64,000 bases of DNA from an uncultured Bacteroidales bacterium (GTDB taxonomy: Bacteria; Bacteroidota; Bacteroidia; Bacteroidales; UBA10428): positions 9,305 to 73,304 of the forward strand of contig CAYWCR010000005.1 of the NCBI GenBank assembly GCA_964456825.1. The letters run 5' to 3'. Below are positions 3,933 to 20,805 of the stretch, in pieces. Every line of letters begins with the position of its first letter. Positions within the stretch are counted from its first letter, which is position 1. The notes under the pieces are model-generated. The model was not told the DNA's origin. It saw nothing but the letters and a program-made list of their open reading frames with translations, and did no database searches. A program made the position numbers and the translations under genes.

Positions 3933-6900
3933 TTAATATTCGTCCCAGCTTTTAATGGTTATATCGTCGAGTTTAAGTTTGCAGATGGCCAGCAAAAAAG
4001 CACTGGCCAGTCGCGCATTGGTGATGAGCGGAATGTTATAATCAATGGCACTGCGACGGATCGTATAGTCATTGCTGAGTTCTGATTTGGAAAGATCCTT
4101 GGGTATGTTGATCACAAGATCGATCATCTTGTTTTTGAGATAATCCAGGGTATTGGGCTTTTTATTTTCATCGGGCCAATGTAAAACCGTACAGGAAATG
4201 CCATTCATCTCCAGAAACTGGGCTGTCCCGAGGGTGGCGAAGAGATTGTATCCTTTTTCAGCCAGCGTCCGGCAGCTGTTGACCAGCTCGACTTTTGAGC
4301 GCATTGGTCCGGTAGATAAGAGGATATTTTTTTTCGGATAAGTGTATCCTACCGACAACATGGATTTCAGAATAGCATCGTAAAAAGTTTCACCGATGCA
4401 TCCGACTTCTCCGGTGGACGCCATATCCACACCCAGTACGGGATCAGCTTTTTGCAACCGCGAAAAGGAGAACTGGGGTGCCTTTATTCCGATGCAGTCA
4501 AGATCAAATATTGATTTGTTGGGTTTTTCAACCTGATTCCCCAGCAATATTTGTGTTGCCAGTTCAATGAAATTAACTTTCAATACTTTTGAAACAAAAG
4601 GAAAACTCCGGGAAGCGCGAAGGTTGCATTCAATAACTTTGATGTCATTATCCTTGGCCAGAAACTGGATATTAAAAGGGCCACTGATCTCAAGCGCTTT
4701 GGCTATTTGCCTGGAAATCTTTTTAATCCTCCTCATGGTCTCAAAATAGATCTTTTGCGCCGGAAAAACGATGGTGGCATCTCCGGAATGCACACCGGCA
4801 AATTCGACATGTTCACTGATGGCATAGGCAACCAGTTCGCCTTCCCTGGCAACGGCATCGATCTCAATCTCCTTTGCCTGTTCAATGAATTCGGATACCA
4901 CAACCGGGTATTGCCGCGAGACCCTGGCAGCAATGTTCAGATAGTGTTCCATTTCTTCCTTGTTGGATACCACGTTCATGGCAGCACCGGAAAGCACATA
5001 GGAAGGCCGTATCAATACAGGGAAACCGACCTCATCAACGAAATCATTGATTTCTCTCACGCTGGTAAGCTCTTTCCACCTTGGCTGATCAATTTTTAAA
5101 CGGTCGCACAACAGGGAAAACTTGTGCCGGTCTTCGGCATTGTCAATGGAAACGGGAGAAGTTCCCAGGATATGGACGTTTTGTTTGTGAAGCCTCATGG
5201 CCAGGTTATTGGGTATCTGGCCGCCCATGGAGAGAATAATACCCCTGGGTTGCTCAAGTTCAATTATGTCCATGACCCTTTCAAAAGAAAGCTCGTCAAA
5301 GTACAGCCGGTCGCAAACATCATAGTCGGTGCTCACGGTCTCGGGATTGTAATTGATCATAACCGACTGGTAACCTGCTTTGTTGATAGCATACAAAGCA
5401 TTAACACTGCACCAGTCGAATTCCACACTGCTGCCGATCCGGTAAGCGCCAGATCCTAAAACAATAACAGATTTATTATCAGCAGAATATTCAATGTCAT
5501 TAGAACTTCCGCTGTAAGTCATGTAGAGATAATTGGTTTTGGCCGGGTATTCTGCTGCGAGGGTATCAATTTGCTTGACGCAGGGCAGGAGGTTATGTTT
5601 TTTCCTGTAAGCCCTGACTTCCAACAGTCCGTCCTGCATGGTTTCACTTTCTTGCTTCAACACATACCGGGCAATCTGAAAATCCGAAAAGCCATAAACT
5701 TTTGCTTTTCTCAGCAGCTCCATAGGGGTGTCCTGAAGGGTATTATGCTGTTCGAGCTGATTTTTCAGATTATGGATATTTCTAAGTTTATACAGGAACC
5801 AGGGATCAATTTTTGTCAGTTCATGGATCTTTTCTATGGAATACCCTTTTTCAAAAGCTGCAGCAATCACAAAGATCCGCATATCCGTGGGTTCGGACAA
5901 TTCCTTTTCCAGATCTTCAAACGCAAGATCGCGGTTGCCGACAAAACCATGCATACCCTGGCCGATCATGCGCAATCCTTTTTGTATGGTTTCTTCAAAA
6001 GTACGGCCAATGGCCATTACTTCACCGACACTTTTCATGCTGCTTCCGATCTGTTTTGAAACGCCGATGAATTTATTAAGGTCCCAGCGGGGTATTTTAC
6101 AAACGATATAATCAAGTGCCGGTTCGAAAAATGCCGAGGTAGTTTTGGTAATGGAATTCCTGATTTCATGCAGGCCATAGCCGACTCCTAGTTTAGCCGC
6201 CACAAAGGCCAGCGGATAACCGGTGGCTTTTGATGCCAGGGCACTGGATCTTGAAAGACGTGCATTCACTTCAATAACCCGGTAATCTTCCGAATAAGGA
6301 TCGAGGGCATATTGAATATTGCACTCGCCGACGATGCCGATGTGCCGGATAATTTTAATGGCCAGCTGTCGCAGGTTATGATATTCAGCGTTGGTGAGCG
6401 TCTGCGATGGAGCAACCACAATGCTTTCACCGGTATGAATCCCCAGGGGATCGAAATTCTCCATATTGCATACCGTGATGCAGTTGTCGTAACGGTCGCG
6501 CACCACTTCATATTCAACTTCCTTCCATCCCTTCAGCGATTTTTCAACCAGTATCTGAGGTGCATAAGAGAATGCCTTATCCGCCATACGGCTCAGTTCT
6601 GCTTCATTATTGCAAAAACCGCTGCCCTGGCCGCCCAGTGTATAGGCCGCCCGGATTATTACGGGATATCCCAGTTTTTCTGCTGCCCCGACGGCATCAT
6701 CGCTGCTGGTAACCGCTATGCTTTGTATCGTTTTAACATTTATTTCATTCAGCTTTTTAACGAACAGATCACGGTCTTCCGTATCCATAATGGCCTGAAC
6801 GGGAGTTCCAAGAACCCTTACCTGGTGTTTTGCCAGGATCCCGTTTCGAAACAAATCAATACCGCAGTTTAATGCTGTCTGGCCTCCAAACGATAGCAAT

Positions 6901-7239: not shown

Positions 7240-7278
7240 TTTGTATACTTTTGCATAATCAATGAATAATTATTCATC
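7240..7278. promoter_or_regulatory. Tandem ARG boxes (ArgR operator) overlapping the argR promoter
   Basis: 18 bp tttGTATACTTTTGCAta + 3 bp atc + 18 bp aaTGAATAATTATTCAtc (perfect TGAAT-N4-ATTCA core). The TACTTTTG -7 element (7246-7253) lies inside box 1. Confidence 0.85.
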
Positions 7279-7281
7279 ATC

Positions 7282-7758
7282 ATGGGAAACAGAACGGAAC
7301 GATTGCTGACCATCCGCAATATCATATCTAGCCGGAAGGTATCAAGCCAGGAAGAATTGCTGAGCCTGTTGGAAGATAAGGGGCTGACCTTTACCCAGGC
7401 AACCCTGTCGAGGGACTTGAAGTTCCTGAAAGTGAATAAAATTTCAGACAGTGAAAAGGGATATATCTATGAATTGCCGGATCAGCATAATGCTCCGGGC
7501 CATGAACTGGCCGAGAGTTATGCCGCAAAGGGTTTTGTTTCCATCAAGTTTGCCAATAAGATGGGTGTGATAAGGACCCTTCCGGGATATGCCCCCAGCA
7601 TAGCCTCGCTTATTGACCAGACCAATCCTTTTGAGATCCTGGGGACCCTGGCCGGAGACGATACCATCTTATTGATCCCCCACGAAAATGTGTCGGAACA
7701 GGATATCATCAATACCCTTGTTCTTATCATACCGGAATTAAAGAATAAATTAAAATAA
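7282..7758 (+). CDS. argR: Arginine repressor
   Basis: SSQEELL, TQATLSRDL winged helix, RTLPGYAPSIA, GTLAGDDTIL. Confidence 0.97.
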   Translation: MGNRTERLLTIRNIISSRKVSSQEELLSLLEDKGLTFTQATLSRDLKFLKVNKISDSEKGYIYELPDQHNAPGHELAESYAAKGFVSIKFANKMGVIRTLPGYAPSIASLIDQTNPFEILGTLAGDDTILLIPHENVSEQDIINTLVLIIPELKNKLK

Positions 7759-9095: not shown

Positions 9096-10439
9096 ATGAA
9101 GCTTTGGGAAAAGGGAATAAAAACGGATCAATGGGTGGAAAGGTTCACCGTTGGAAAGGACCGGGACATGGACCGGATCCTGGCCCCATATGATGTGCTG
9201 GGATCGCTGGCGCATGCCGCCATGCTAAAACAAACCGGAATCCTGCCTGAAACTGAGTTTCAGGCAATCCGTATTGCATTGACAGCGCTCTATAAGGACA
9301 TTGGCAGGAAAGGCTTTGAAATCGAGGAAGGCATTGAAGATGTTCATTCCCAGGTTGAACTGCTGTTGACGCGGAAACTGGGTGAAGCCGGCAAGCATAT
9401 TCATACAGCCAGGTCAAGAAATGACCAGGTGCTGCTCGACATTAAACTATACATAAGGGATGAGATTCGCCAGGTATCTGAAATAGCGGGCAAATTTTTT
9501 CACAGCCTGCAGCAGCGAAGTGAGGAAACGAAAGAAATATTGCTGCCGGGGTATACCCATTTGCAGGTGGCCATGCCTTCTTCCTTCGGCCTCTGGTTTG
9601 GCGCTTATGCAGAAAGCCTGGTGGATGATATGCAGCTGCTGCTGGCCGCGTACCGCATTGTTAATCAAAATCCGCTTGGTTCTGCTGCGGGTTACGGATC
9701 TTCCTTCCCGATCAACCGGCAGCTCACAACAGACCTGCTTGGATTTGACGCCATGAATTACAATGCTGTCTATGCACAGATGGGCAGGGGAAAAGTTGAA
9801 AAAATTGTGGCATTTGCATTGGCTTCCTTTGCTTCGACATTGTCCAAACTGGCCAGCGATGTCTGTCTTTATGCCAGTCAGAATTTCGGCTTTTTCAGAT
9901 TACCCGATGCCTACACCACGGGGTCAAGCATCATGCCGCATAAAAAGAATCCGGATGTATTCGAACTGATACGGGCCAGGTGCAATAAAATTCAAAGCCT
10001 GCCGAACGAGATCGGATTCCTTGTTAATAATCTGCCTTCAGGCTATTTCCGGGACCTTCAGGTTATCAAAGAATCCTTCCTTCCGGCATTCGATGAACTA
10101 AAAAGCTGTATTGCCATGGCTGATCTGATCACAGGCAAACTGGAAGTTAACCGGCATAGTACAGAAGGGGAATTGTATCAGTATTTATTCAGCGTTGAAG
10201 AAGTGAACAAATTGGTAGACAGCGGTGTTCCTTTCAGGGATGCATACCGGAAAATTGCCCAGGACATCAAAACCGGAAATTATCATCCGGAAAGGATGGT
10301 AAGGCATTCCCATGAAGGCAGCATCGGGAATCTTTGCAATGATAAAATAGCGTTGCGCATGAAAAGGATCTTACAGGAATTCAACTTCCGGAAAACAGAT
10401 ATAGCCATTAAAGCATTGCTGCAATATGGAAAAAAGTAA
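9096..10439 (+). CDS. argH: Argininosuccinate lyase
   Basis: HTARSRNDQV, LPGYTHLQVAMP, GSSIMPHKKNPD signature. Confidence 0.97.
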   Translation: MKLWEKGIKTDQWVERFTVGKDRDMDRILAPYDVLGSLAHAAMLKQTGILPETEFQAIRIALTALYKDIGRKGFEIEEGIEDVHSQVELLLTRKLGEAGKHIHTARSRNDQVLLDIKLYIRDEIRQVSEIAGKFFHSLQQRSEETKEILLPGYTHLQVAMPSSFGLWFGAYAESLVDDMQLLLAAYRIVNQNPLGSAAGYGSSFPINRQLTTDLLGFDAMNYNAVYAQMGRGKVEKIVAFALASFASTLSKLASDVCLYASQNFGFFRLPDAYTTGSSIMPHKKNPDVFELIRARCNKIQSLPNEIGFLVNNLPSGYFRDLQVIKESFLPAFDELKSCIAMADLITGKLEVNRHSTEGELYQYLFSVEEVNKLVDSGVPFRDAYRKIAQDIKTGNYHPERMVRHSHEGSIGNLCNDKIALRMKRILQEFNFRKTDIAIKALLQYGKK

Positions 10440-11118
10440 ACGTCAGTTCCGTATCGTAGTGCGGATTGAAATGGCCACCCTCATCAACCGGGACGGAAAA
10501 ATAAACCGGAAGAAAATGGACCGGCTCGCCATGGTATTATCGAACCTGAACAATAGCGGAAAACAAATTATGGTGGTTACTTCCGGCGCTATTGTGCTGG
10601 GCTCAGAGAAACTCAATCTTTCATCCATGCCCGGCTCAAAATTGGATATGCAGGCCACGGCAGCCGTTGGCCAGGTTGAACTCATCCGGTCATATCAGCG
10701 ATTTTTTGATGAGTATGGTCAGATAGTAGCCCAGGTGCTGGTTACAAGCGATATTGTTGAATATCCATCCCGCATTGAAAACACCCGCAACACATTTGAT
10801 ATGCTGTTGTCTATGAACATTATACCCATTGTCAATGAAAATGACCCTGTTTCAACTACGGATATTGAGCTGGATGATAATTACCCCCTGGCCCTGAAAG
10901 TTGCCAATATCGCAAGGGCTGATTTCATTGTCATAAAGTCAGCGACCAACGGTTATTATTGTATTGTTCAGGGCAATGGCAAGCCGGCTGTTGAGGTTGA
11001 AAATGAAATAACGCTTCAGGAGAAAATAGAAGAATTATGTAAGGGCATTACCCCGGCCCGGTTGGATTCATCCGGTATCGTATTCCCTGTGTCGATGGAA
11101 GAAATCTGTCCCCGTTAA
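10426..11118 (+). CDS. Degenerate glutamate 5-kinase paralogue (probable pseudokinase, ProB*)
   Basis: Colinear with the adjacent ProB over about 164 aa (VTSGAI, AAVGQ, NEND kept). VVKIGTS is VVRIEMA, GDND is DDNY, and the SDIDG and TGGM.TK motifs are absent. Confidence 0.85.
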   Translation: MEKSKRQFRIVVRIEMATLINRDGKINRKKMDRLAMVLSNLNNSGKQIMVVTSGAIVLGSEKLNLSSMPGSKLDMQATAAVGQVELIRSYQRFFDEYGQIVAQVLVTSDIVEYPSRIENTRNTFDMLLSMNIIPIVNENDPVSTTDIELDDNYPLALKVANIARADFIVIKSATNGYYCIVQGNGKPAVEVENEITLQEKIEELCKGITPARLDSSGIVFPVSMEEICPR

Positions 11119-11129
11119 CGACTGGTGTT

Positions 11130-11948
11130 ATGGAATTCAGAAAAATACTGAGAAATAAAAAAAGGATCGTTGTTAAAATAGGCACATCCACGTTGTCCTT
11201 CGAGAATGGAAGGATAAACTTTCATCGCCTTGAAAAGCTGGCGGATGTATTAAGCACTTTGCGCAAAAAGGGAATTCAGGTTGTGCTGGTCACATCAGGG
11301 GCTATCGGTGTTGGTGCAGCCAGAATCGGAATGACACAGAAGCCCAGGGAACTGAACCTGAAACAGGCATTGGCAGCTATTGGCCAGGCCGAGCTTATGA
11401 AAATGTACCAGAAATTTTTTGAAGAACATAATCAGCTGGTAGCGCAGGTTTTGTTAACCAAGGATGTGGTCACCATTCACCGGCGCAACCAGCATGCCAG
11501 GAGAACCCTTGACCGTTTGCTCGATATGGGGATCATCCCTATCATCAACGAGAATGATACCATTGCCACCTATGAAATTGAATTTGGCGATAATGATTCC
11601 TTGTCGGCCATCGTAGCAACGCTGATTGAAGCTGATTTGCTGGTCATCCTCTCGGATATTGACGGATTGTATTCAGCAGACCCCAGGATGGAAACTTCTG
11701 CCGAGATTATCCATTCGGTATTTGAGATTACACCTGAGCTTGAGCAATTGGCTTCGGGTGCAGGCAGTTCCTTCAGCACGGGCGGGATGGTTACCAAAAT
11801 CGCCGCGGCCAAAATGTGCATGCAGGCAGGACTGGATTGCATTATCACCAATGGATCAGAACCTGCGGTAATTTTTGACATACTGGAAGGCAAAAAGGTC
11901 GGTACCCACTTTGTTGCCGGCCAGCAACATATTATTAACCATGCATGA
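11130..11948 (+). CDS. proB: Glutamate 5-kinase (short form, no PUA domain)
   Basis: IVVKIGTSTL, VTSGAI, INENDT, EFGDNDSL, SDIDGL, TGGMVTK. Confidence 0.97.
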   Translation: MEFRKILRNKKRIVVKIGTSTLSFENGRINFHRLEKLADVLSTLRKKGIQVVLVTSGAIGVGAARIGMTQKPRELNLKQALAAIGQAELMKMYQKFFEEHNQLVAQVLLTKDVVTIHRRNQHARRTLDRLLDMGIIPIINENDTIATYEIEFGDNDSLSAIVATLIEADLLVILSDIDGLYSADPRMETSAEIIHSVFEITPELEQLASGAGSSFSTGGMVTKIAAAKMCMQAGLDCIITNGSEPAVIFDILEGKKVGTHFVAGQQHIINHA

Positions 11949-13206
11949 TCAGTCTATGAAATCAGGGATACTGGAAAAGGGAAAAAATGTTAAGAAGGCT
12001 TCCCGGATACTGGCTGTTGCCAATACGGCCCTTAAGGATAAAGCCCTGCTATTGATCGCGGAAGAAATTGAAAAGAACCGCGAAGCCATCAGGTCAGCCA
12101 ACAGCAAGGACCTCCGGGCCGGTGTGAAAAAAGGCCTTTCGGCTGCCTTTATCGACAGGCTCACCCTGGATGACAAACGCATTGACGGCATGGTTAAAAT
12201 ATTGCATGATGTGGTCAACCTGAAGGACCCTGTTGGTGAGATTTTCAATATGAATACCATGCCTAACGGATTAAAGGTCGGCCAGATGCGGGTTCCCATC
12301 GGTGTGATCGGCATTATCTTTGAATCCCGTCCGAATGTTTGCATAGAAGTGGCCTCACTGACGGTAAAATCAGGTAACGCAGCGCTTTTAAAAGGAGGAT
12401 CAGATGCCATTCATTCCAACATCTGCCTTACCCGCATAATTAAAAAGGGTTTGTTGAATGCAGGTTTGCCGGAAAGTTGTATCGAGATCATTGATAATAC
12501 AAGCCGGGAATCGGTGCTGGAAATGGTTAAAATGAAGGAATATATTGATGTTATCATTCCCAGGGGAGGACTTCAGTTGATACGCTTTGTGGAAGAAAAT
12601 TCGGTAATACCCGTCATCCGGCATGATCAGGGAATATGCCATACCTATGTTGACGAGTTTGCCAGCCTGCAGATGGCCTTGAGTATTTGCCTCAATGCCA
12701 AAGCCCAGCGTCCGGGCGTATGCAATGCCATGGAGACCTTGCTGGTGCATTCGGAAATTGCCCCGGTTTTTTTACCCATGATGGAGAAGGAATATAAAAA
12801 GGCAGGCGTAAAATTAAAGGGATGCAACAAAACAAAAATGATCCTGCCGGATATTCAGGACGCAACGGAAGAGGACTGGAAGACAGAATACCTCGACCTG
12901 ATCCTGGCTGTTAAAATAGTGGACAGCCTTGAGGAGGCCGTTGCCCATATTAATGAATACAGCTCGCATCATTCGGATTCCATTGTAACGGATCATTATG
13001 GCCAGGGCATGCGGTTTATAACCGAAGTCGATTCGGCAGCCTGTTTCATTAATGCTTCCACCCGCTTCAGCGACGGGAATGAATTCGGCCTCGGAGCAGA
13101 AATGGGCATCAGCAATCAAAAACTACATGTTCGGGGGCCTATGGGTCTGAAAGACCTTACGGCTCCGAAATATATTATTTTCGGTAATGGACAGATAAGA
13201 GTTTAG
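11941..13206 (+). CDS. proA: Gamma-glutamyl phosphate reductase
   Basis: VPIGVIGIIFESRPNV, KGGSDA, CNAMETLLVH, NASTRFSDGNEFGLGAEMGIS. Start at 11941 (or 11956) overlaps the proB stop. Confidence 0.97.
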   Translation: MHDQSMKSGILEKGKNVKKASRILAVANTALKDKALLLIAEEIEKNREAIRSANSKDLRAGVKKGLSAAFIDRLTLDDKRIDGMVKILHDVVNLKDPVGEIFNMNTMPNGLKVGQMRVPIGVIGIIFESRPNVCIEVASLTVKSGNAALLKGGSDAIHSNICLTRIIKKGLLNAGLPESCIEIIDNTSRESVLEMVKMKEYIDVIIPRGGLQLIRFVEENSVIPVIRHDQGICHTYVDEFASLQMALSICLNAKAQRPGVCNAMETLLVHSEIAPVFLPMMEKEYKKAGVKLKGCNKTKMILPDIQDATEEDWKTEYLDLILAVKIVDSLEEAVAHINEYSSHHSDSIVTDHYGQGMRFITEVDSAACFINASTRFSDGNEFGLGAEMGISNQKLHVRGPMGLKDLTAPKYIIFGNGQIRV

Positions 13207-14590: not shown

Positions 14591-14605
14591 CCCTATAAAA
14601 TAGGG
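14591..14605. terminator. Short hairpin after gltA (possible weak terminator)
   Basis: CCCTAT-AAA-ATAGGG in AT-rich flanks; only 6 bp and no contiguous U-tract. Confidence 0.3.
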
Positions 14606-14634
14606 ATATTGTTTTAAAATATACTATTTTTTAT

Positions 14635-14642
14635 TACATTTG
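14635..14642 (+). promoter_or_regulatory. Sigma-70 -7 element (TACATTTG) of the gltBD leader
   Basis: Exact TAnnTTTG, with a TTG at about 14609-14611 as a possible -33 element; 23 nt before the leader ATG. Confidence 0.7.
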
Positions 14643-14665
14643 CCCTATCTGTTTTATAGGTTAAA

Positions 14666-14716
14666 ATGATTTTTAAAGATTTTAATAATAAGGATATTGC
14701 ATTTCAACAGGGTTGA
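14666..14716 (+). CDS. Putative gltBD leader peptide MIFKDFNNKDIAFQQG*
   Basis: ATG in A-rich context (TTAAAATG), tandem Asn and tandem Gln (CAA CAG) codons; the stop TGA is the start of the antiterminator 5' strand. Confidence 0.65.
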   Translation: MIFKDFNNKDIAFQQG

Positions 14717-14776
14717 GAATGGTATCATTATAAATTCAGGCAAAAGCCATTCTCATTACCCGGGAATGGCTTTTTT
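14714..14776 (+). terminator. Attenuator: mutually exclusive antiterminator and intrinsic terminator
   Basis: TGAGAATGG (14714-14722) pairs with CCATTCTCA (14747-14755). Alternatively AAAAGCCATTC (14742-14752) pairs with GAATGGCTTTT (14764-14774), with a U6 tract at 14771-14776. Confidence 0.75.
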
Positions 14777-14803: not shown

Positions 14804-17800
14804 ATGATAAGCAGGAGATTGCCAAAGGCACAGGGGCTGTATGATCCCTCAGAGGAAAAAGACAGTTGCGGTATCGGCTTCGTTGCGCATATCAAAGGGA
14901 TCAAGTCACATGAAATTATCAGCAGGGGAATAGAAGTCCTGGAGAATATGTCACACCGTGGTGCGGAAAGTGCTGATAATGTGACCGGCGACGGAGCCGG
15001 AATATTAATGCAGATTCCGCATAAATTGATCTTATCCAGGGGCATCAACGTTCCGGATGAGGGCAGTTACGGAACAGGTCTGGTTTTTTTGCCCAGGGGA
15101 CAGGATGAAAGGGAACAATGCGAAAAGATACTGACCGGGATCCTTGTGGCGGAGGGACTTGATGTAATACATTTTCAGGATGTCCAGGTCGATAATTCAG
15201 TGCTCGGGGAAATATCCAGCAGTTCTGAACCCTTCATCCGACAGATATATGTTACCGGAAATCATGAGCAGGATGAAATGGAAAGAAGGCTCTACATCTC
15301 CCGGAAAATGGCTGAAAACACGATCAGAAGTTCGGCCCTGAAAGATAGGGAAGCCTTTTATATTCCCAGCCTGTCAACCAAGGTTCTCATCTACAAGGGA
15401 TTGTTCACATCCCTTCAACTGGCGCAATATTTCACCGATCTGAAAAATCCCGCCATGGAAAGCGCTATTGCCATGATTCATTCGCGGTTCAGTACCAACA
15501 CTTTCCCGACATGGGATCTGGCACAGCCCTTCAGGTTTCTCTCCCACAATGGCGAGATCAATACCATCAGCAGCAACCGCATGTGGATGAATGCCCGCGA
15601 ATCGCTCATGAAAACTGAACTGTTCGGGGAAGACCTGAAGAAATTGTTCCCGGTCATAGAGCCCGGCAAAAGTGATTCGGCCTCGCTGGACAATGCGCTG
15701 GAGTTTCTGGTGCTGACGGGGAAATCATTGCCGCATGCCCTCAGCATGCTGATCCCGGAATCGTGGAATGACAAAAACCCTATTCCTGACAGCCTTAAGG
15801 CGTTTTATGAATACCACTCTACCATCATGGAGCCCTGGGACGGGCCTGCCTCGATAGTGTTCAGCGACGGACGGTATATCGGGGGTACCCTGGACAGGAA
15901 TGGACTGCGTCCCTCACGCTATATCATCACCAAAGACGACATGATCGTTATGGGGTCGGAGGTCGGCGTGCAAATCTTTCCTCCGGAGAAAATCCGTGAG
16001 AAAGGCCGGCTCATGCCGGGAAAGATTCTCCTGGTGGATACAAAATTCGGCATCATTGTGCCTGACGATGAGTTAAAAAGGCAGCTGACGGGACGGAATC
16101 CTTATGGCAACTGGCTGAAGGAAAACCGGATTGATCTGAATGATATTGTGGTAAAAGAAAGGATTCCCACCAGTCTCGGTGACCGGTTTGACCAATACCT
16201 GAGGGTATTCGGATATACAAAGGAAGATATTGATATTGTCATGAAACCCATGGCCAGGGAAGGGCAGGAACCCGTCAATTCCATGGGAAATGATACACCC
16301 CTTGCTGTCATGTCGGATAAGCCGCAACGCCTGTTCAGCTATTTCCGGCAGCATTTTGCCCAGGTTACCAATCCGCCTGTCGATCCCATTCGTGAAGGGC
16401 TGGTCATGTCGCTGACCAATTATATCGGATCGGTTTCCCGAAACTTGCTTATCGAATCCCCTGCCCATTGCAAACTGATTAAGTTCCGAAGTCCCATTGT
16501 CACCAATACGGATCTGGGGAAAATAAAAAACCTCGACCAGGGCCAGTTCTCCCATGAGGTCATTCCTATTCTGTTCCCTGCCACCGGCCATAATCCAGGA
16601 AAAGCCCTTGAAAAAGCCCTGGATGAGATTTGCCGGAAAGCTGAAAAGGCAGTGGACAACGGGCGCAATTTTATTGTCCTCTCCGACAGGGATATGAATG
16701 AAAAAATGGTGCCCATACCCTCCATCCTGGCTGTTTCTGCCGTTCATCACCACCTGATTGCAGTCAAAAAAAGAATGCAGATTGGTTTGATACTGGAATC
16801 TGCTGAACCCAGGGAAGTGAACCACTTTGCTTTGTTGTTCGCTTACGGGGCCAGTATTGTCAATCCATACGGAGCATTTTCCATCCTGGAGAAATATTGC
16901 GAGAGCGGCGATATTCAGCACGATTATGTGAAAGCCCGGGAGAATTATATCAAGGCAATAGACAAGGGATTGCTGAAAGTTATGTCTAAAATGGGCATTT
17001 CCACCCTCAGGAGTTATCTGGGATCACAGATTTTTGAGGCCATCGGAATTTCAACCGGTGTGATCAACCGGTATTTTACCGGGACCGACTCAAGGATTGA
17101 AGGCATCGGCCTGGAAGAAATAGCCAAAGAAGCCATGATGCCGCATCAGCACGCTTTTGAAAAAAATAGTCTGGAAGCAGAGAGTCTGCACAGTGAAGGC
17201 GTATATCATTACCGGACAGGCGGGGAGTATCATGCCTGGAATCCGGATACCATCGGATTGCTGCAGTGGTCAACACATACCAATGACTATGCAAAATACA
17301 GGGAATTCAGCGCTCAGGTCGATGCTGAAAACCGACGTCCTCATTTTATACGGGGCTGTGTGAATATCAAAAAGGGGAAATCAGTTCCCATTGAGGAAGT
17401 TGAACCGGTTGAATCCATCATGAAACGTTTCGTCACCGGCGCCATGTCGTATGGTTCCATCAGCAAGGAAGCCCATGAAGCCATGGCAATTGCCATGAAC
17501 TCCATTGGAGGAAGAAGCAACACCGGTGAAGGAGGGGAGGATTCAGAACGGTTTAAACCAAGAGAGGACGGTACCTTTGCCCGCAGCGCCATCAAACAGG
17601 TGGCTTCCGGGCGTTTTGGTGTCACAGCCCATTATCTTGTCAATGCCGATGAGCTTCAGATCAAGGTTGCCCAGGGGGCCAAGCCGGGAGAAGGGGGTCA
17701 GCTGCCGGGATATAAAATTGACAGGATCATTGCAAAATTAAGGCATTCCACACCCGGAATAACCCTTATCTCACCACCTCCGCATCATGATATCTATTCC

Positions 17801-19348
17801 ATAGAGGACCTGGCACAGCTTATTTTTGATCTTAAATGCACCAATCCGGGCGCCCGCATCAGTGTCAAACTGGTCTCGGAAAAAGGTGTCGGCACCATTG
17901 CGGCCGGAGTTGCCAAGGCGCATGCTGACGGCATTACCATCAGCGGATGCGAGGGAGGAACCGGGGCAAGTCCGCTCAGTTCCATTAAACATGCAGGATT
18001 GCCTATGGAATTGGGCATCTCGGAAGTGCAGCAGACCCTGGTGATGAACAACCTGCGTGACCGGGTCAGGCTGCAAACAGACGGACAGCTGAAAACCGGC
18101 CGGGATGTTATTTATGCCGGATTGCTGGGAGCGGAAGAATTCGGATTCGCTACAGCCGCCCTGATCGTTCTGGGTTGCATCATGATGCGAAAATGCCATC
18201 TCAACACCTGTCCGGTAGGCGTGGCAACGCAGAATCCGGAACTTCGCAAGCGGTTTCTGGGAAAATCAGCCTACCTGGTCAATTATTTCCGGTTTGTTGC
18301 CCAGGAGGTAAGGGAAATGCTCGCGGAAATGGGATTTCGTTCCTTCGATGAAATCGTTGGCCGGACCGACATGCTGGAACAGCGTAAGGATATATCGCAC
18401 TGGAAGGCAAGCAAAATAGACCTGTCCAGGATCCTTTTCCGCCCGAAAGAGGCTGACAACCATGCAACCCGATGCATATGCCTGCAGCAGCACAAAATTG
18501 AGGAGGTCATGGATCATGAACTCATAGCGCTTTCCAACAAGGCCATCAAGAATCAGGAAAAGGTCTGGATTTCCAGGGATATCACCAATACTGACCGCAC
18601 TGTCGGGGCCATGCTGTCCGGTGAAATAACCCGCATATATGGCGAAGCTGCCCTTCCCGACAGCACCATAATATGCAAATTCAAAGGCTCAGCCGGACAA
18701 TCCTTTGGCGCATTTCTGGTAAAAGGTATTCAGTTTGAAATGGAAGGTGATACCAATGATTATCTGGGCAAAGGATTATCCGGAGGCCGGATCATTGTGG
18801 TTCCACCCAAAGGATCCACCTTCAGGCCGGAAGAAAACATAATAGTCGGCAATACCATTCTGTATGGCGCTACAAGTGGTGAAGCTTATATCAGGGGCGT
18901 CGCAGGCGGCCGGTTCTGTGTGAGAAACAGCGGTGCCATTGCGGTTGTTGAAGGGGTCGGCGATCATGGCTGCGAATACATGACCGGCGGCAGGGTTGTG
19001 GTGCTGGGTAAGACCGGCAGGAATTTCGCAGCTGGCATGAGTGGCGGTATTGCATACATACTGGATAAGGAGGGCAATTTTGATTATTTCTGCAATAAAG
19101 GCATGGTTGAGTTATCTCCGGTTGGTGATAAGGATGACCTTATGGAATTGCAGCAGATGATCAGTAACCATTATCTCTATTCACGAAGTGAACTTGCAGA
19201 AAGGATACTGGTGAACTGGAACGAATACCTGCCCAAATTCATCAAAGTGATACCGCTGGAATATAAGAAAGTGCTTGAAGAACAAAAAATATCCCAGCTG
19301 CTTGAAAAAATCAAACAGACGGAAGACGAACCGCATTTTCACTATTAG
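14804..19348 (+). CDS. gltB: Glutamate synthase large subunit
   Basis: DSCGIGF (Ntn Cys), HSRFSTNT, EPWDGPA, KVAQGAKPGEGGQL, CIMMRKCHLNTCPVGVATQ, GXGXG C-terminal repeats. Confidence 0.98.
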   Translation: MISRRLPKAQGLYDPSEEKDSCGIGFVAHIKGIKSHEIISRGIEVLENMSHRGAESADNVTGDGAGILMQIPHKLILSRGINVPDEGSYGTGLVFLPRGQDEREQCEKILTGILVAEGLDVIHFQDVQVDNSVLGEISSSSEPFIRQIYVTGNHEQDEMERRLYISRKMAENTIRSSALKDREAFYIPSLSTKVLIYKGLFTSLQLAQYFTDLKNPAMESAIAMIHSRFSTNTFPTWDLAQPFRFLSHNGEINTISSNRMWMNARESLMKTELFGEDLKKLFPVIEPGKSDSASLDNALEFLVLTGKSLPHALSMLIPESWNDKNPIPDSLKAFYEYHSTIMEPWDGPASIVFSDGRYIGGTLDRNGLRPSRYIITKDDMIVMGSEVGVQIFPPEKIREKGRLMPGKILLVDTKFGIIVPDDELKRQLTGRNPYGNWLKENRIDLNDIVVKERIPTSLGDRFDQYLRVFGYTKEDIDIVMKPMAREGQEPVNSMGNDTPLAVMSDKPQRLFSYFRQHFAQVTNPPVDPIREGLVMSLTNYIGSVSRNLLIESPAHCKLIKFRSPIVTNTDLGKIKNLDQGQFSHEVIPILFPATGHNPGKALEKALDEICRKAEKAVDNGRNFIVLSDRDMNEKMVPIPSILAVSAVHHHLIAVKKRMQIGLILESAEPREVNHFALLFAYGASIVNPYGAFSILEKYCESGDIQHDYVKARENYIKAIDKGLLKVMSKMGISTLRSYLGSQIFEAIGISTGVINRYFTGTDSRIEGIGLEEIAKEAMMPHQHAFEKNSLEAESLHSEGVYHYRTGGEYHAWNPDTIGLLQWSTHTNDYAKYREFSAQVDAENRRPHFIRGCVNIKKGKSVPIEEVEPVESIMKRFVTGAMSYGSISKEAHEAMAIAMNSIGGRSNTGEGGEDSERFKPREDGTFARSAIKQVASGRFGVTAHYLVNADELQIKVAQGAKPGEGGQLPGYKIDRIIAKLRHSTPGITLISPPPHHDIYSIEDLAQLIFDLKCTNPGARISVKLVSEKGVGTIAAGVAKAHADGITISGCEGGTGASPLSSIKHAGLPMELGISEVQQTLVMNNLRDRVRLQTDGQLKTGRDVIYAGLLGAEEFGFATAALIVLGCIMMRKCHLNTCPVGVATQNPELRKRFLGKSAYLVNYFRFVAQEVREMLAEMGFRSFDEIVGRTDMLEQRKDISHWKASKIDLSRILFRPKEADNHATRCICLQQHKIEEVMDHELIALSNKAIKNQEKVWISRDITNTDRTVGAMLSGEITRIYGEAALPDSTIICKFKGSAGQSFGAFLVKGIQFEMEGDTNDYLGKGLSGGRIIVVPPKGSTFRPEENIIVGNTILYGATSGEAYIRGVAGGRFCVRNSGAIAVVEGVGDHGCEYMTGGRVVVLGKTGRNFAAGMSGGIAYILDKEGNFDYFCNKGMVELSPVGDKDDLMELQQMISNHYLYSRSELAERILVNWNEYLPKFIKVIPLEYKKVLEEQKISQLLEKIKQTEDEPHFHY

Positions 19349-19383
19349 GATCAATCCAAGCTAACCATTAACATAACACGGAT

Positions 19384-20805
19384 ATGGGAAACCCAAAAGG
19401 ATTTATGCTGATACCCAGAAAGGCGGCAGGATATCGCCCCCTCAATGAACGCATTGATGACTTTGGTGAAGTTGAGCAAACGCTGAATGAACAGGACAGG
19501 AAAGATCAGGCTTCCCGTTGCATGGACTGCGGAGTACCCTTTTGTCAGTGGGGATGCCCAGTCATGAATAATATGCCGGAATGGCAGGATGCCATTTATC
19601 GCGGTAACTGGAAAGAGGCTGTTGATCTGCTTCATATTACCAATAATTTTCCTGAATTCACCGGACGTATCTGTCCGGCCCCCTGCGAAAACGCCTGCAC
19701 CCTTAATATTCACGAAGAACCGGTTACCATTCGTGAGAATGAAGCCGCAGTAGCCGAAAAAGGATTCGAACTGGGCTATATTGTACCCAGGCCGCCCCTG
19801 GTAAGAACCGGCAAAAAGGTGGCTGTGGTCGGATCGGGTCCTTCGGGACTGGCATGCGCTGATTTGTTAAACCAGTGGGGCCATACGGTTACGGTTTTCG
19901 AGAAAGATGAGGCTCCGGGCGGATTGCTCAGGTTTGGCATTCCCGATTTCAAACTGAACAAGAAAGTAATTGACCGCCGTCTTGAGGTGCTGCAGCAGGA
20001 AGGCCTTCATTTTAAGACCAACACCCTCGTAGGGTATGATGTTAAGGGAACAGACATGCTGAAGGAATTTGATGCCGTATGCCTTACCATTGGAGCCATG
20101 AAGCCGCGGGATCTGCAGGCCGAAGGCAGAGAGCTGACCGGAATTCATTTTGCCATGGATTTTCTGACTCAGCAGAATAAAGTAAACCGGGGCATGCATA
20201 TCGGCGAAGCTGAGCGGATAACAGCAGCCGGCAAAAATGTCGTGGTCATTGGTGGCGGAGATACCGGCTCAGACTGCGTGGGGACATCAATACGCCAGGG
20301 GGCAAAAAGCATCACCCAGATAGAGATACTGCCCAAACCACCGGCACGGCGCAATCCGGATAACCCATGGCCTTTCTGGGCAAATGTTCTGCGGTATTCA
20401 AGCTCGCATGACGAAGGATGCGACCGGAAATGGAGCCTTTCAACCAAAAGATTTACCGGAGAAAATGGCAGGGTAAGAAAAATAGAAATGGCGGAGGTAG
20501 ACTGGGTAAAGTCAGCGGGAAAATTTACCATGATGGAAAAGCCAAACACGGATAAGGTGATGGATGCTGAACTTGTTTTGCTTGCCATGGGTTTTGTTCA
20601 TTGCATGCATGAAGGAATTGTCAGGGAGCTGGAACTGGAACTCGATGTAAGAGGCAACATAAAAATAAATCCGGGCTTTCAAACCAGCCAGCAGAAGGTT
20701 TTTGCCGCAGGTGATTCGGTAACGGGAGCGAGCCTGGTTGTCAGGGCCATTTTCCAGGGCAGAAACCTTGCCAAGGCTGTCAATACTTTCCTGAATGCTC
20801 CGTAG
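19384..20805 (+). CDS. gltD: Glutamate synthase small subunit
   Basis: RCMDCGVPFC, NNFPEFTGRICPAPCE, GSGPSGLA, GGGDTGSDC, VFAAGD. Confidence 0.97.
   Translation: MGNPKGFMLIPRKAAGYRPLNERIDDFGEVEQTLNEQDRKDQASRCMDCGVPFCQWGCPVMNNMPEWQDAIYRGNWKEAVDLLHITNNFPEFTGRICPAPCENACTLNIHEEPVTIRENEAAVAEKGFELGYIVPRPPLVRTGKKVAVVGSGPSGLACADLLNQWGHTVTVFEKDEAPGGLLRFGIPDFKLNKKVIDRRLEVLQQEGLHFKTNTLVGYDVKGTDMLKEFDAVCLTIGAMKPRDLQAEGRELTGIHFAMDFLTQQNKVNRGMHIGEAERITAAGKNVVVIGGGDTGSDCVGTSIRQGAKSITQIEILPKPPARRNPDNPWPFWANVLRYSSSHDEGCDRKWSLSTKRFTGENGRVRKIEMAEVDWVKSAGKFTMMEKPNTDKVMDAELVLLAMGFVHCMHEGIVRELELELDVRGNIKINPGFQTSQQKVFAAGDSVTGASLVVRAIFQGRNLAKAVNTFLNAP

Follow-up and report, generated by a model that had tools for sequence, protein, structure and literature searches.

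The glutamate synthase operon gltBD of an uncultured Bacteroidales bacterium (assembly GCA_964456825.1, contig CAYWCR010000005.1) is preceded by a leader that is probably a ribosome-mediated transcription attenuator, controlled by a leader peptide. This leader lies in a stretch of 64,000 nucleotides (nt) that we call the window, and coordinates given without a locus name are positions in it. The signal it would read is most likely the supply of charged tRNA-Asn, perhaps also of tRNA-Lys. To our knowledge the regulators of glutamate synthase in the organisms examined so far are DNA-binding proteins, and the nitrogen sensing of most Bacteroidota is poorly understood. A gltBD attenuator would be a direct route from aminoacyl-tRNA supply to ammonium assimilation. 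If the leader does read tRNA charging and was re-coded from a branched-chain attenuator, ammonium assimilation receives a nitrogen input without a protein regulator, and a cassette has clearly been put to a second use with another specificity.

Anatomy of the leader

An initial annotation of this DNA had proposed an attenuator with the logic of the trp and his leaders. The anatomy for such a switch is present, and the comparative evidence for it is strong. The annotation had listed a promoter, a short upstream open reading frame (uORF), a 9-bp antiterminator that begins at the uORF stop, a terminator with six U residues and a gap of 27 nt before gltB. All of these were found in place. The features are as follows.

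14636-14643, + strand: promoter -7 box TACATTTG, which fits the Bacteroidota consensus TAnnTTTG
14666-14716, + strand: leader uORF of 16 codons plus TGA, predicted peptide MIFKDFNNKDIAFQQG; the ORF is kept in relatives, the peptide sequence is not
14684-14689, + strand: tandem Asn codons AAT AAT at positions -10/-9 from the stop, candidate regulatory codons
14688-14731, + strand: local hairpin of regions 1 and 2 (1:2), -8.4 kcal/mol, which sequesters the antiterminator 5' arm
14714-14723, + strand: region 2, the antiterminator 5' arm UGAGAAUGGU, whose first 3 bases are the uORF stop codon
14746-14755, + strand: region 3, the shared arm GCCAUUCUCA, which pairs with region 2 (antiterminator) or region 4 (terminator)
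14742-14776, + strand: intrinsic terminator of 13 pairs (14742-14754 with 14762-14774), loop AUUACCC, U6 at 14771-14776, -16.7 kcal/mol
14804-19348, + strand: gltB, an ORF of 1514 aa for the large subunit, N-terminus with a CGIGF motif, GATase_2 domain in homologues
19384-20805, + strand: gltD, the glutamate synthase small subunit, with Fer4_20 and Pyr_redox_2 domains

The genes that we propose to be under leader control are gltB and gltD (14804-20805, + strand). TAnnTTTG is the -7 consensus of Bacteroides promoters, and transcription would start a few nt 3' of the TACATTTG box. The uORFs discussed here are presumably translated, each from the start codon assigned to it. A Lys codon (Lys9, 14690-14692) comes right after the tandem Asn codons.

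The antiterminator is formed by TGAGAATGG (14714-14722), which is perfectly complementary to CCATTCTCA (14747-14755), and a wobble between T14723 and G14746 extends the helix to 10 pairs. This 2:3 hairpin (9-10 pairs, -12.4 kcal/mol) shares an arm with the terminator, whose T-run is separated from the gltB ATG (14804) by 27 nt. The window has a single copy of the two-arm pattern GAGAATGG-N10-40-CCATTCTC, where 100 shuffles give an expectation of 0.00, and the folding z of the leader against shuffles is -2.67. A covariance model of the element, R1, gives it 65 bits (E = 1.5e-10) and finds no second element in the 64-kb window. In the folding model hairpin 1:2 is the anti-antiterminator, and possibly a pause hairpin.

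Proposed mechanism

We propose the following sequence of events. Transcription would begin just 3' of TACATTTG, and ribosomes would translate the uORF of 16 codons. An unhindered ribosome would reach the UGA at 14714 and cover UGAGAAUGG, the antiterminator 5' arm. GCCAUUCUC would then pair with GGGAAUGGC, and the 13-pair terminator with its U6 would halt RNA polymerase 27 nt before gltB. A ribosome delayed roughly 4-12 codons before the stop would leave the arm free. The arm would then pair with 14746-14755, the terminator would not form and gltBD would be transcribed.

Predicted folds are consistent with this scheme. Before region 4 exists the minimum-energy structure already holds the antiterminator 2:3, so the terminator should prevail only when region 2 is occupied. 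When the sequence up to about 14719 is treated as occluded and folding begins at 14720, only the terminator is left. In toeprints the footprint of a ribosome extends roughly 12-15 nt past the P site. Region 2 would be occupied by a ribosome at the stop codon or by one with Gln14 or Gln15 in the A site, and a ribosome with its A site at least 4 codons before the stop would leave region 2 free. This geometry agrees with that of the sibling leaders of leuA and ilvD described below.

Conservation upstream of gltB

L-numbers (L001, L003 and so on) denote the individual loci that were compared. Scanning genomes for the GltB N-terminus yielded only 4 close relatives, all of them metagenome-assembled genomes (MAGs) of uncultured Bacteroidales with 75-85% identity, and exact-protein look-ups gave 9 further gltB loci with 61-74% identity. 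This protein-anchored set of 13 loci is unbiased for the leader. The initial annotation had predicted that the uORF and the helices would be conserved, and they are. The blocks GAGAATGG...GCCATTCTC...ATGGC are invariant in all 6 gltB loci with at least 70% N-terminal identity, and a T-rich tract follows the last block. The uORF ends on the region-2 TGA in 5 of these 6. The element is found upstream of gltB regardless of whether the preceding gene is citrate synthase, proA or another.

The uORF is kept as an ORF. The peptides of the gltB relatives cannot be aligned, and among these relatives there is no sequence conservation from the promoter to region 2 or in the loop between regions 2 and 3. 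An ATG ORF of 10-25 codons nonetheless ends exactly on the region-2 UGA in 13 of 14 gltB leaders, against about 6% for each in composition-matched shuffles. This corresponds to P of about 4e-15, a value that holds only if the leaders are independent, and they are related. The 225 codons contain no in-frame stop, and the other two frames contain 27 and 30 stops, a difference that is partly by construction given that the ORFs were defined from ATG to stop.

At 61-66% identity the element is absent or represented by variants of uncertain form. L206 has a variant hairpin set and no clear uORF, and no attenuator was found upstream of gltB in the more distant Bacteroidota L083, L084, L205, L208 and L209. 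Among the other gltB lineages of the protein scan, only L024, L063 and L064 showed a terminator-like hairpin 5' of gltB, and in the two that were inspected, L024 and L064, a uORF arrangement is not evident.

A family of probable attenuators of leuA, ilvD and gltB

The same hairpin platform, UGAGAAUGG(U) / GCCAUUCUC / GAAUGGC-U6, recurs in metagenomes. A metagenome scan with the exact platform, in which the search pattern demanded GAGAATGG, GCCATTCTC and ATGGC exactly, gave at least 120 loci. Together with the window and the earlier loci there are at least 128 platform matches. The counts in this paragraph hold among the matches listed. A T-run and an AT-rich context are present in 82, and the others were rejected as GC-rich chance matches. 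Viral contigs gave 8 matches, all within coding sequence and without a T-run, and these serve as chance controls. The downstream gene is leuA in 44 cases, ilvD in 15 and gltB in 14. A perfect TAnnTTTG box was detected by script in roughly half of the 82. Where both box and uORF are present (about 40 of the 82), the distance from box end to ATG is about 18-21 nt in general and 14-23 nt over the whole range, apart from two script-chosen outliers of 10 and 51 nt. Of 80 evaluable instances, 67 use the TGA of TGAGAATGG as uORF stop, and 8 more have their stop 2-5 nt upstream of it. The taxonomy of most contigs was assigned solely from promoter type, MAG labels and one Bacteroidales SRP RNA.

Leader composition differs by class, counted in codons back from the stop:

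leuA leaders: Ile 42% and Leu 34% at -12 to -8; Leu 47% and Ile 27% at -7 to -4
ilvD leaders: Val 48%, Leu 27% and Ile 15% at -12 to -8; Val 42% and Ile 21% at -7 to -4
gltB leaders: Asn 34% and Lys 14% at -12 to -8; Lys 31% at -7 to -4

The last cognate codons of the leuA and ilvD leaders are at -4 or -5. Cognate codons are what one expects of a ribosome-mediated attenuator, and by homology this makes the same reading of the gltB class compelling. We argue that the gltB element is homologous to the Bacteroidota leuA and ilvD attenuators, with which it has in common the platform UGAGAAUGG(U)...GCCAUUCUC...GAAUGGC-U-run, the promoter type and spacing, and the placement of the stop. The initial annotation had not noticed this family, nor the Lys codons at -7 to -4.

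The siblings differ from the window leader in their 5' half. Their peptides are hydrophobic and region 2 pairs with a strong region 1 at uORF codons -16 to -11, so that they have the full 1:2, 2:3, 3:4 architecture with folds of about -20 kcal/mol. The window leader is hydrophilic and its local hairpin is weak. In leuA leaders region 1 is UCAUUCUC or UUAUUCUU and reads Ile-Ile-Leu. The platform sequence is constant because region 2 must complement the Ile-Leu codons, and regions 3 and 4 are mimics of regions 1 and 2, respectively. Judged from the sequences, then, the platform is tied to the Ile-Leu codons (AUU CUC) of an ancestral region 1. Hairpin 1:2 is weak and variable in the clade of the window. 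It is strong in the leuA and ilvD leaders and in the gltB leaders of L140 and L156, which still carry a region 1 of the Ile-Leu type.

The helices covary, as the initial annotation had expected. Across 56 family members the base of the terminator stem has compensatory changes from AU to GC. In variant members found with the covariance model all three arms (2, 3 and 4) differ in concert, with GAGGAAGG/CCUUUCUC and GGAAGGC where the others have GAGAAUGG/CCAUUCUC. Examples are the second attenuator of L088 and one in L145.

Rfam does not know the family. There is no match on the window region (E up to 10) or on the leuA, ilvD and gltB loci (E up to 1), and a gathering-threshold scan of the whole window returns one tRNA only. 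A resemblance to GibS in the Rfam scans is weak, at the level of the terminator only, and was rejected. By its sequence the element is a member of a larger Bacteroidota attenuator family that is absent from Rfam. This is relevant for the annotation of Bacteroidota leaders, which have no Rfam model. One hairpin cassette can serve several regulons by re-coding of the leader ORF alone, which bears on the evolution of attenuators.

One can imagine instead that a riboswitch ligand or an RNA-binding protein picks the hairpin, and that the uORF is incidental. The block GAGAAUGG(U)RUR is highly conserved and could in principle be a binding site. Its conservation is explained by pairing with the Ile-Leu codons of region 1, however, and one sequence serves three regulons, which a regulon-specific factor leaves unexplained. 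There is no conserved aptamer-like sequence either. Everything 5' of region 2 varies, as does the loop between regions 2 and 3, and the sole conserved 5' property is an ORF that ends on UGA. The lack of an Rfam match extends to the glutamine riboswitch families. We regard a riboswitch or a protein-dependent antiterminator as extremely improbable.

The cassette was also seen in individual loci. It lies 5' of leuA, with Ile/Leu-rich leaders such as MKNQIIILGIILLGLLQTPA, and 5' of ilvD, with Val-rich leaders such as MKNISIISLVINSVVVVLRAE, in L086-L204. Examples are L109 (542-613, minus strand), L088 (4036-4109) and L095 (275-346, minus strand). L088 has tandem attenuators 5' of ilvD (4042-4100 and 4181-4258). 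In the second, a separate Val/Ile/Leu-rich uORF, MKSAYYLLVLVIIVVILIV, goes with the variant cassette GAGGAAGG / CCTTTCTC / GGAAGGC. A weaker second match to the covariance model lies at a similar place in L107 (5516-5597) and L153 (1884-1965).

Codons that would be sensed

We now consider what a ribosome-mediated attenuator of gltBD would sense. Of 14 gltB leaders, 13 have an Asn within -12 to -8 (P = 0.0004, within-peptide shuffles). At -10 alone Asn is found in 8 of 14, and the chance that some residue reaches such a count at some position is P = 0.007. Among the matches listed, Asn occurs within -12 to -8 in 0 of 30 leuA leaders and 1 of 12 ilvD leaders. Lys dominates at -7 to -4 of the gltB leaders. 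These codons fall in the stall window, and therefore charged tRNA-Asn, perhaps with tRNA-Lys, is the most likely signal. Charging of these tRNAs would report amide and amino nitrogen status by way of translation speed. The codons of the pathway's own product and substrate are not enriched, as Glu accounts for 5 of 225 codons and Gln for 5%, confined to -3/-2. Whether Asn or Lys codons are specific sensors is to our mind nearly balanced, with a slight lean towards doubt. The wider proposal is that some Bacteroidota sense nitrogen sufficiency through translation here, with an Asn/Lys leader made by re-coding a branched-chain amino-acid attenuator whose cassette was kept. We advance it tentatively and give it rather less than even credence.

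The initial annotation had proposed sensing of the amide amino acids, and of that proposal the Asn half is supported, with Lys added to it. The Gln half is not supported. It held that scarcity of glutamine would stall the ribosome at CAA-CAG (-3/-2), which would free the antiterminator and induce gltBD. Tandem Gln is indeed present in the window, L002 and L105, a single Gln is present in 4 more leaders, and slowing at Gln codons under nitrogen starvation has reportedly been seen in E. coli. The geometry argues for the opposite outcome, though. A ribosome with Q14 in the A site covers the start of UGAGAAUGG, and the RNA from 14720 onward folds into the terminator only, so a stall at Gln would give termination. 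Moreover, CAA pairs with the UUG preceding the stop in the local hairpin, and in the window the Gln codons are part of the upper 5' arm of hairpin 1:2 (UUUCAAC with GUUGAGA). Gln is found in 7 of 15 gltB leaders, is missing from the other 8 and never occurs upstream of -3, and it is not what these leaders conserve. We consider it very improbable that the Gln codons are the sensor.

The annotation had also offered a ligand-induced arrest at the stop codon as an alternative, and an arrest peptide of the TnaC type was considered and rejected. In 15 leaders position -1 varies (T, G, H, Y, S and others) and so do -2 to -4. With C-termini as variable as these, such an arrest is unlikely.

The origin of the platform suggests yet another signal. 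If the gltB leader still read the Ile, Leu and Val codons of a leu/ilv-type ancestor, gltBD would respond to branched-chain amino acids. The platform is common to leuA and ilvD leaders, the gltB leaders of L140 and L156 keep a His-Ile-Ile(-Leu) region 1, Ile makes up 13% of gltB leader residues and L001 has IIVI at -7 to -4. The E. coli gltBDF operon is under Lrp, a leucine-responsive regulator (PMC1784095). The codon counts speak against this. Ile is no more frequent in frame (28) than in the other frames (38 and 14). At -12 to -4 the gltB leaders have Ile at 9-12% and Leu at 5-8%, and Ile, Leu and Val are together a small minority where they dominate in the siblings. Branched-chain sensing is in our view quite improbable.

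Several points weigh against an attenuator with specific Asn and Lys codons. The gltB uORFs are 44% A, and in-frame Asn and Lys are only about 1.5-1.7 times as frequent as in the other two frames, so their enrichment may partly reflect an A-rich, unstructured mRNA. The gltB leader of L105 has no Asn. A ribosome at Asn7 or Asn8 has its front edge only at about 14696-14701, and with a weak 1:2 hairpin the benefit of a stall there rests on a kinetic argument. In L003 (1207-1325) CGA replaces the uORF stop TGA, and the frame stays open across the antiterminator and the terminator until a TAG beyond the T-run. L003 may be a natural variant with a different logic, or the change may be an assembly error. 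The conservation of the platform in the metagenome set is circular, as the set was retrieved by the exact platform sequence, and the unbiased protein-anchored set is small with 13 loci only. Finally, the leaders are related by descent, which makes the P values optimistic.

It is worth considering the same attenuator as a non-specific sensor of translation capacity. Any slowing of initiation or elongation on the uORF, as in a general starvation for amino acids or nitrogen, would then free the antiterminator, and the A-rich Asn and Lys codons would just keep the mRNA unstructured. The A content and the modest in-frame excess of Asn and Lys agree with this. So does the clade of the window, which lacks a strong region 1. 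Before region 4 is made the antiterminator is the default fold even with no ribosome present, and read-through would be the rule except when a ribosome occupies the stop codon. All amino acids receive nitrogen by way of glutamate synthase, and a general signal would suit this enzyme. On the other hand, Asn is concentrated at -12 to -8 and not spread over the peptide, as the shuffles cited above indicate, and siblings on the same platform hold clearly cognate codons at these positions. We judge a non-specific sensor unlikely, though it deserves to be taken seriously.

Comparison with known systems

A ribosome-mediated attenuator of gltBD would have much in common with the classical enterobacterial trp, his, leu, thr, ilvGMEDA and pheA attenuators. 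These too have a short promoter-near uORF, mutually exclusive 1:2, 2:3 and 3:4 hairpins and a U-tract terminator, and their uORF stop is placed for a terminating ribosome to mask the antiterminator arm. They differ in that their target is the pathway of the amino acid enriched in the leader, whereas here it is an ammonium-assimilation enzyme. The gltB leader has no run of Glu codons and is enriched in Asn and Lys. Its region 1 is weak and directly adjoins region 2, and its stop codon is inside the antiterminator helix.

Leader-peptide attenuators of amino-acid biosynthesis operons have been described in Bacteroidota before. They were noted for ilvE, hisG and trp of Flavobacterium psychrophilum (PMC9723704 supplement), and the Bacteroid-trp motif (Rfam RF01692) is a trp leader of this phylum (PMC2864571). 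None of these concerns gltBD, and RF01692 matches neither the window (E up to 10) nor the sibling loci (E up to 1).

The F. psychrophilum hisG leader contains UAAUGGUAUG, and its His-rich leader ends ...TGTTAATGGTATG, similar to the region 2 flank GAATGGTATG here (PMC9723704 supplement). On this similarity the cassette family may extend to his operons.

The glutamine riboswitches (glnA RNA and Downstream-peptide) are likewise cis-acting RNAs that report nitrogen status 5' of nitrogen-assimilation genes. They have a conserved glutamine-binding aptamer, whereas the gltB leader has no aptamer and no Rfam match and has a conserved uORF instead. In E. coli gltBD is controlled by Lrp, IHF, Crp and ArgR (PMC1784095). 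The target operon and the link to amino-acid status are the same, but there DNA-binding proteins act at the promoter, and here the control would be by RNA and ribosome.

The initial annotation knew of no described attenuator for gltBD, and we found none in the literature searched. Three aspects appear new: central ammonium assimilation as the target, a leader enriched in Asn and Lys rather than in the pathway product, and the reuse of a branched-chain cassette.

Gene surroundings and other gltB loci

The gene order in the window is carB, argR, argG, argH, an amino-acid kinase fragment, proB, proA, citrate synthase, the leader, gltB, gltD, an EamA transporter and a pair of ECF sigma factor and FecR genes. 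The genes from argR to the FecR gene are on the + strand and mostly belong to glutamate-family metabolism; carB is on the opposite strand. One further feature lies near the leader, outside the switch.

14591-14615, + strand: small hairpin CCCTATAAAATAGGG (14591-14605) with a T-rich tail, a terminator-like site

This hairpin probably terminates transcription of the citrate synthase gene that precedes the leader, and equivalent hairpins are found 3' of the upstream gene in L001, L004, L082 and L105. With a terminator-like hairpin of its own behind the citrate synthase gene, the gltBD leader appears to be a separate transcription unit.

Other genes of the window deserve brief mention. The argR gene (MGNRTERLLTIRNIIS..., 7255-7757) has an ARG-box-like palindrome, TGAATAATTATTCA, in front of it. 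Directly after argR come argG and argH, and carB is divergently oriented to it. Directly 5' of proB there is an ORF of 230 aa of the amino-acid-kinase family (10426-11118) with a Pfam match that is partial only. The longest proA ORF (11875-13206) opens at TTG and overlaps proB by about 70 nt, and its true start is probably further downstream.

Other sequences were seen 5' of gltB in its relatives. In L207 (432-620) a gltB relative lies 3' of amtB, and a leader ORF of 23 codons, MGKIKYHNKNHMLRIVVTIRQSG, is followed by a strong unrelated terminator, GACCGTTCC / GGAACGGTC. An antiterminator was looked for in L207, and none was convincing. L083, L208 and L084, the last labelled Prolixibacteraceae, have gltB 3' of argH and no attenuator. 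A promoter-proximal block, TTTGCTTTCA...TTTCTGCTTACA, is common to L083 (about 1370-1420) and L208 closely and to L084 loosely, and it may be a different gltB regulatory site in that lineage. The two-arm pattern was also matched in L069, a cyanobacterium (Phormidium), where the match is an unrelated long palindromic repeat. Two copies of this long perfect palindrome, GGACATAAAACCCAAA...TTTGGGTTTT, lie 5' of gltB in L069 (2040-2110 and 2265-2330), and it resembles a dispersed hairpin repeat.

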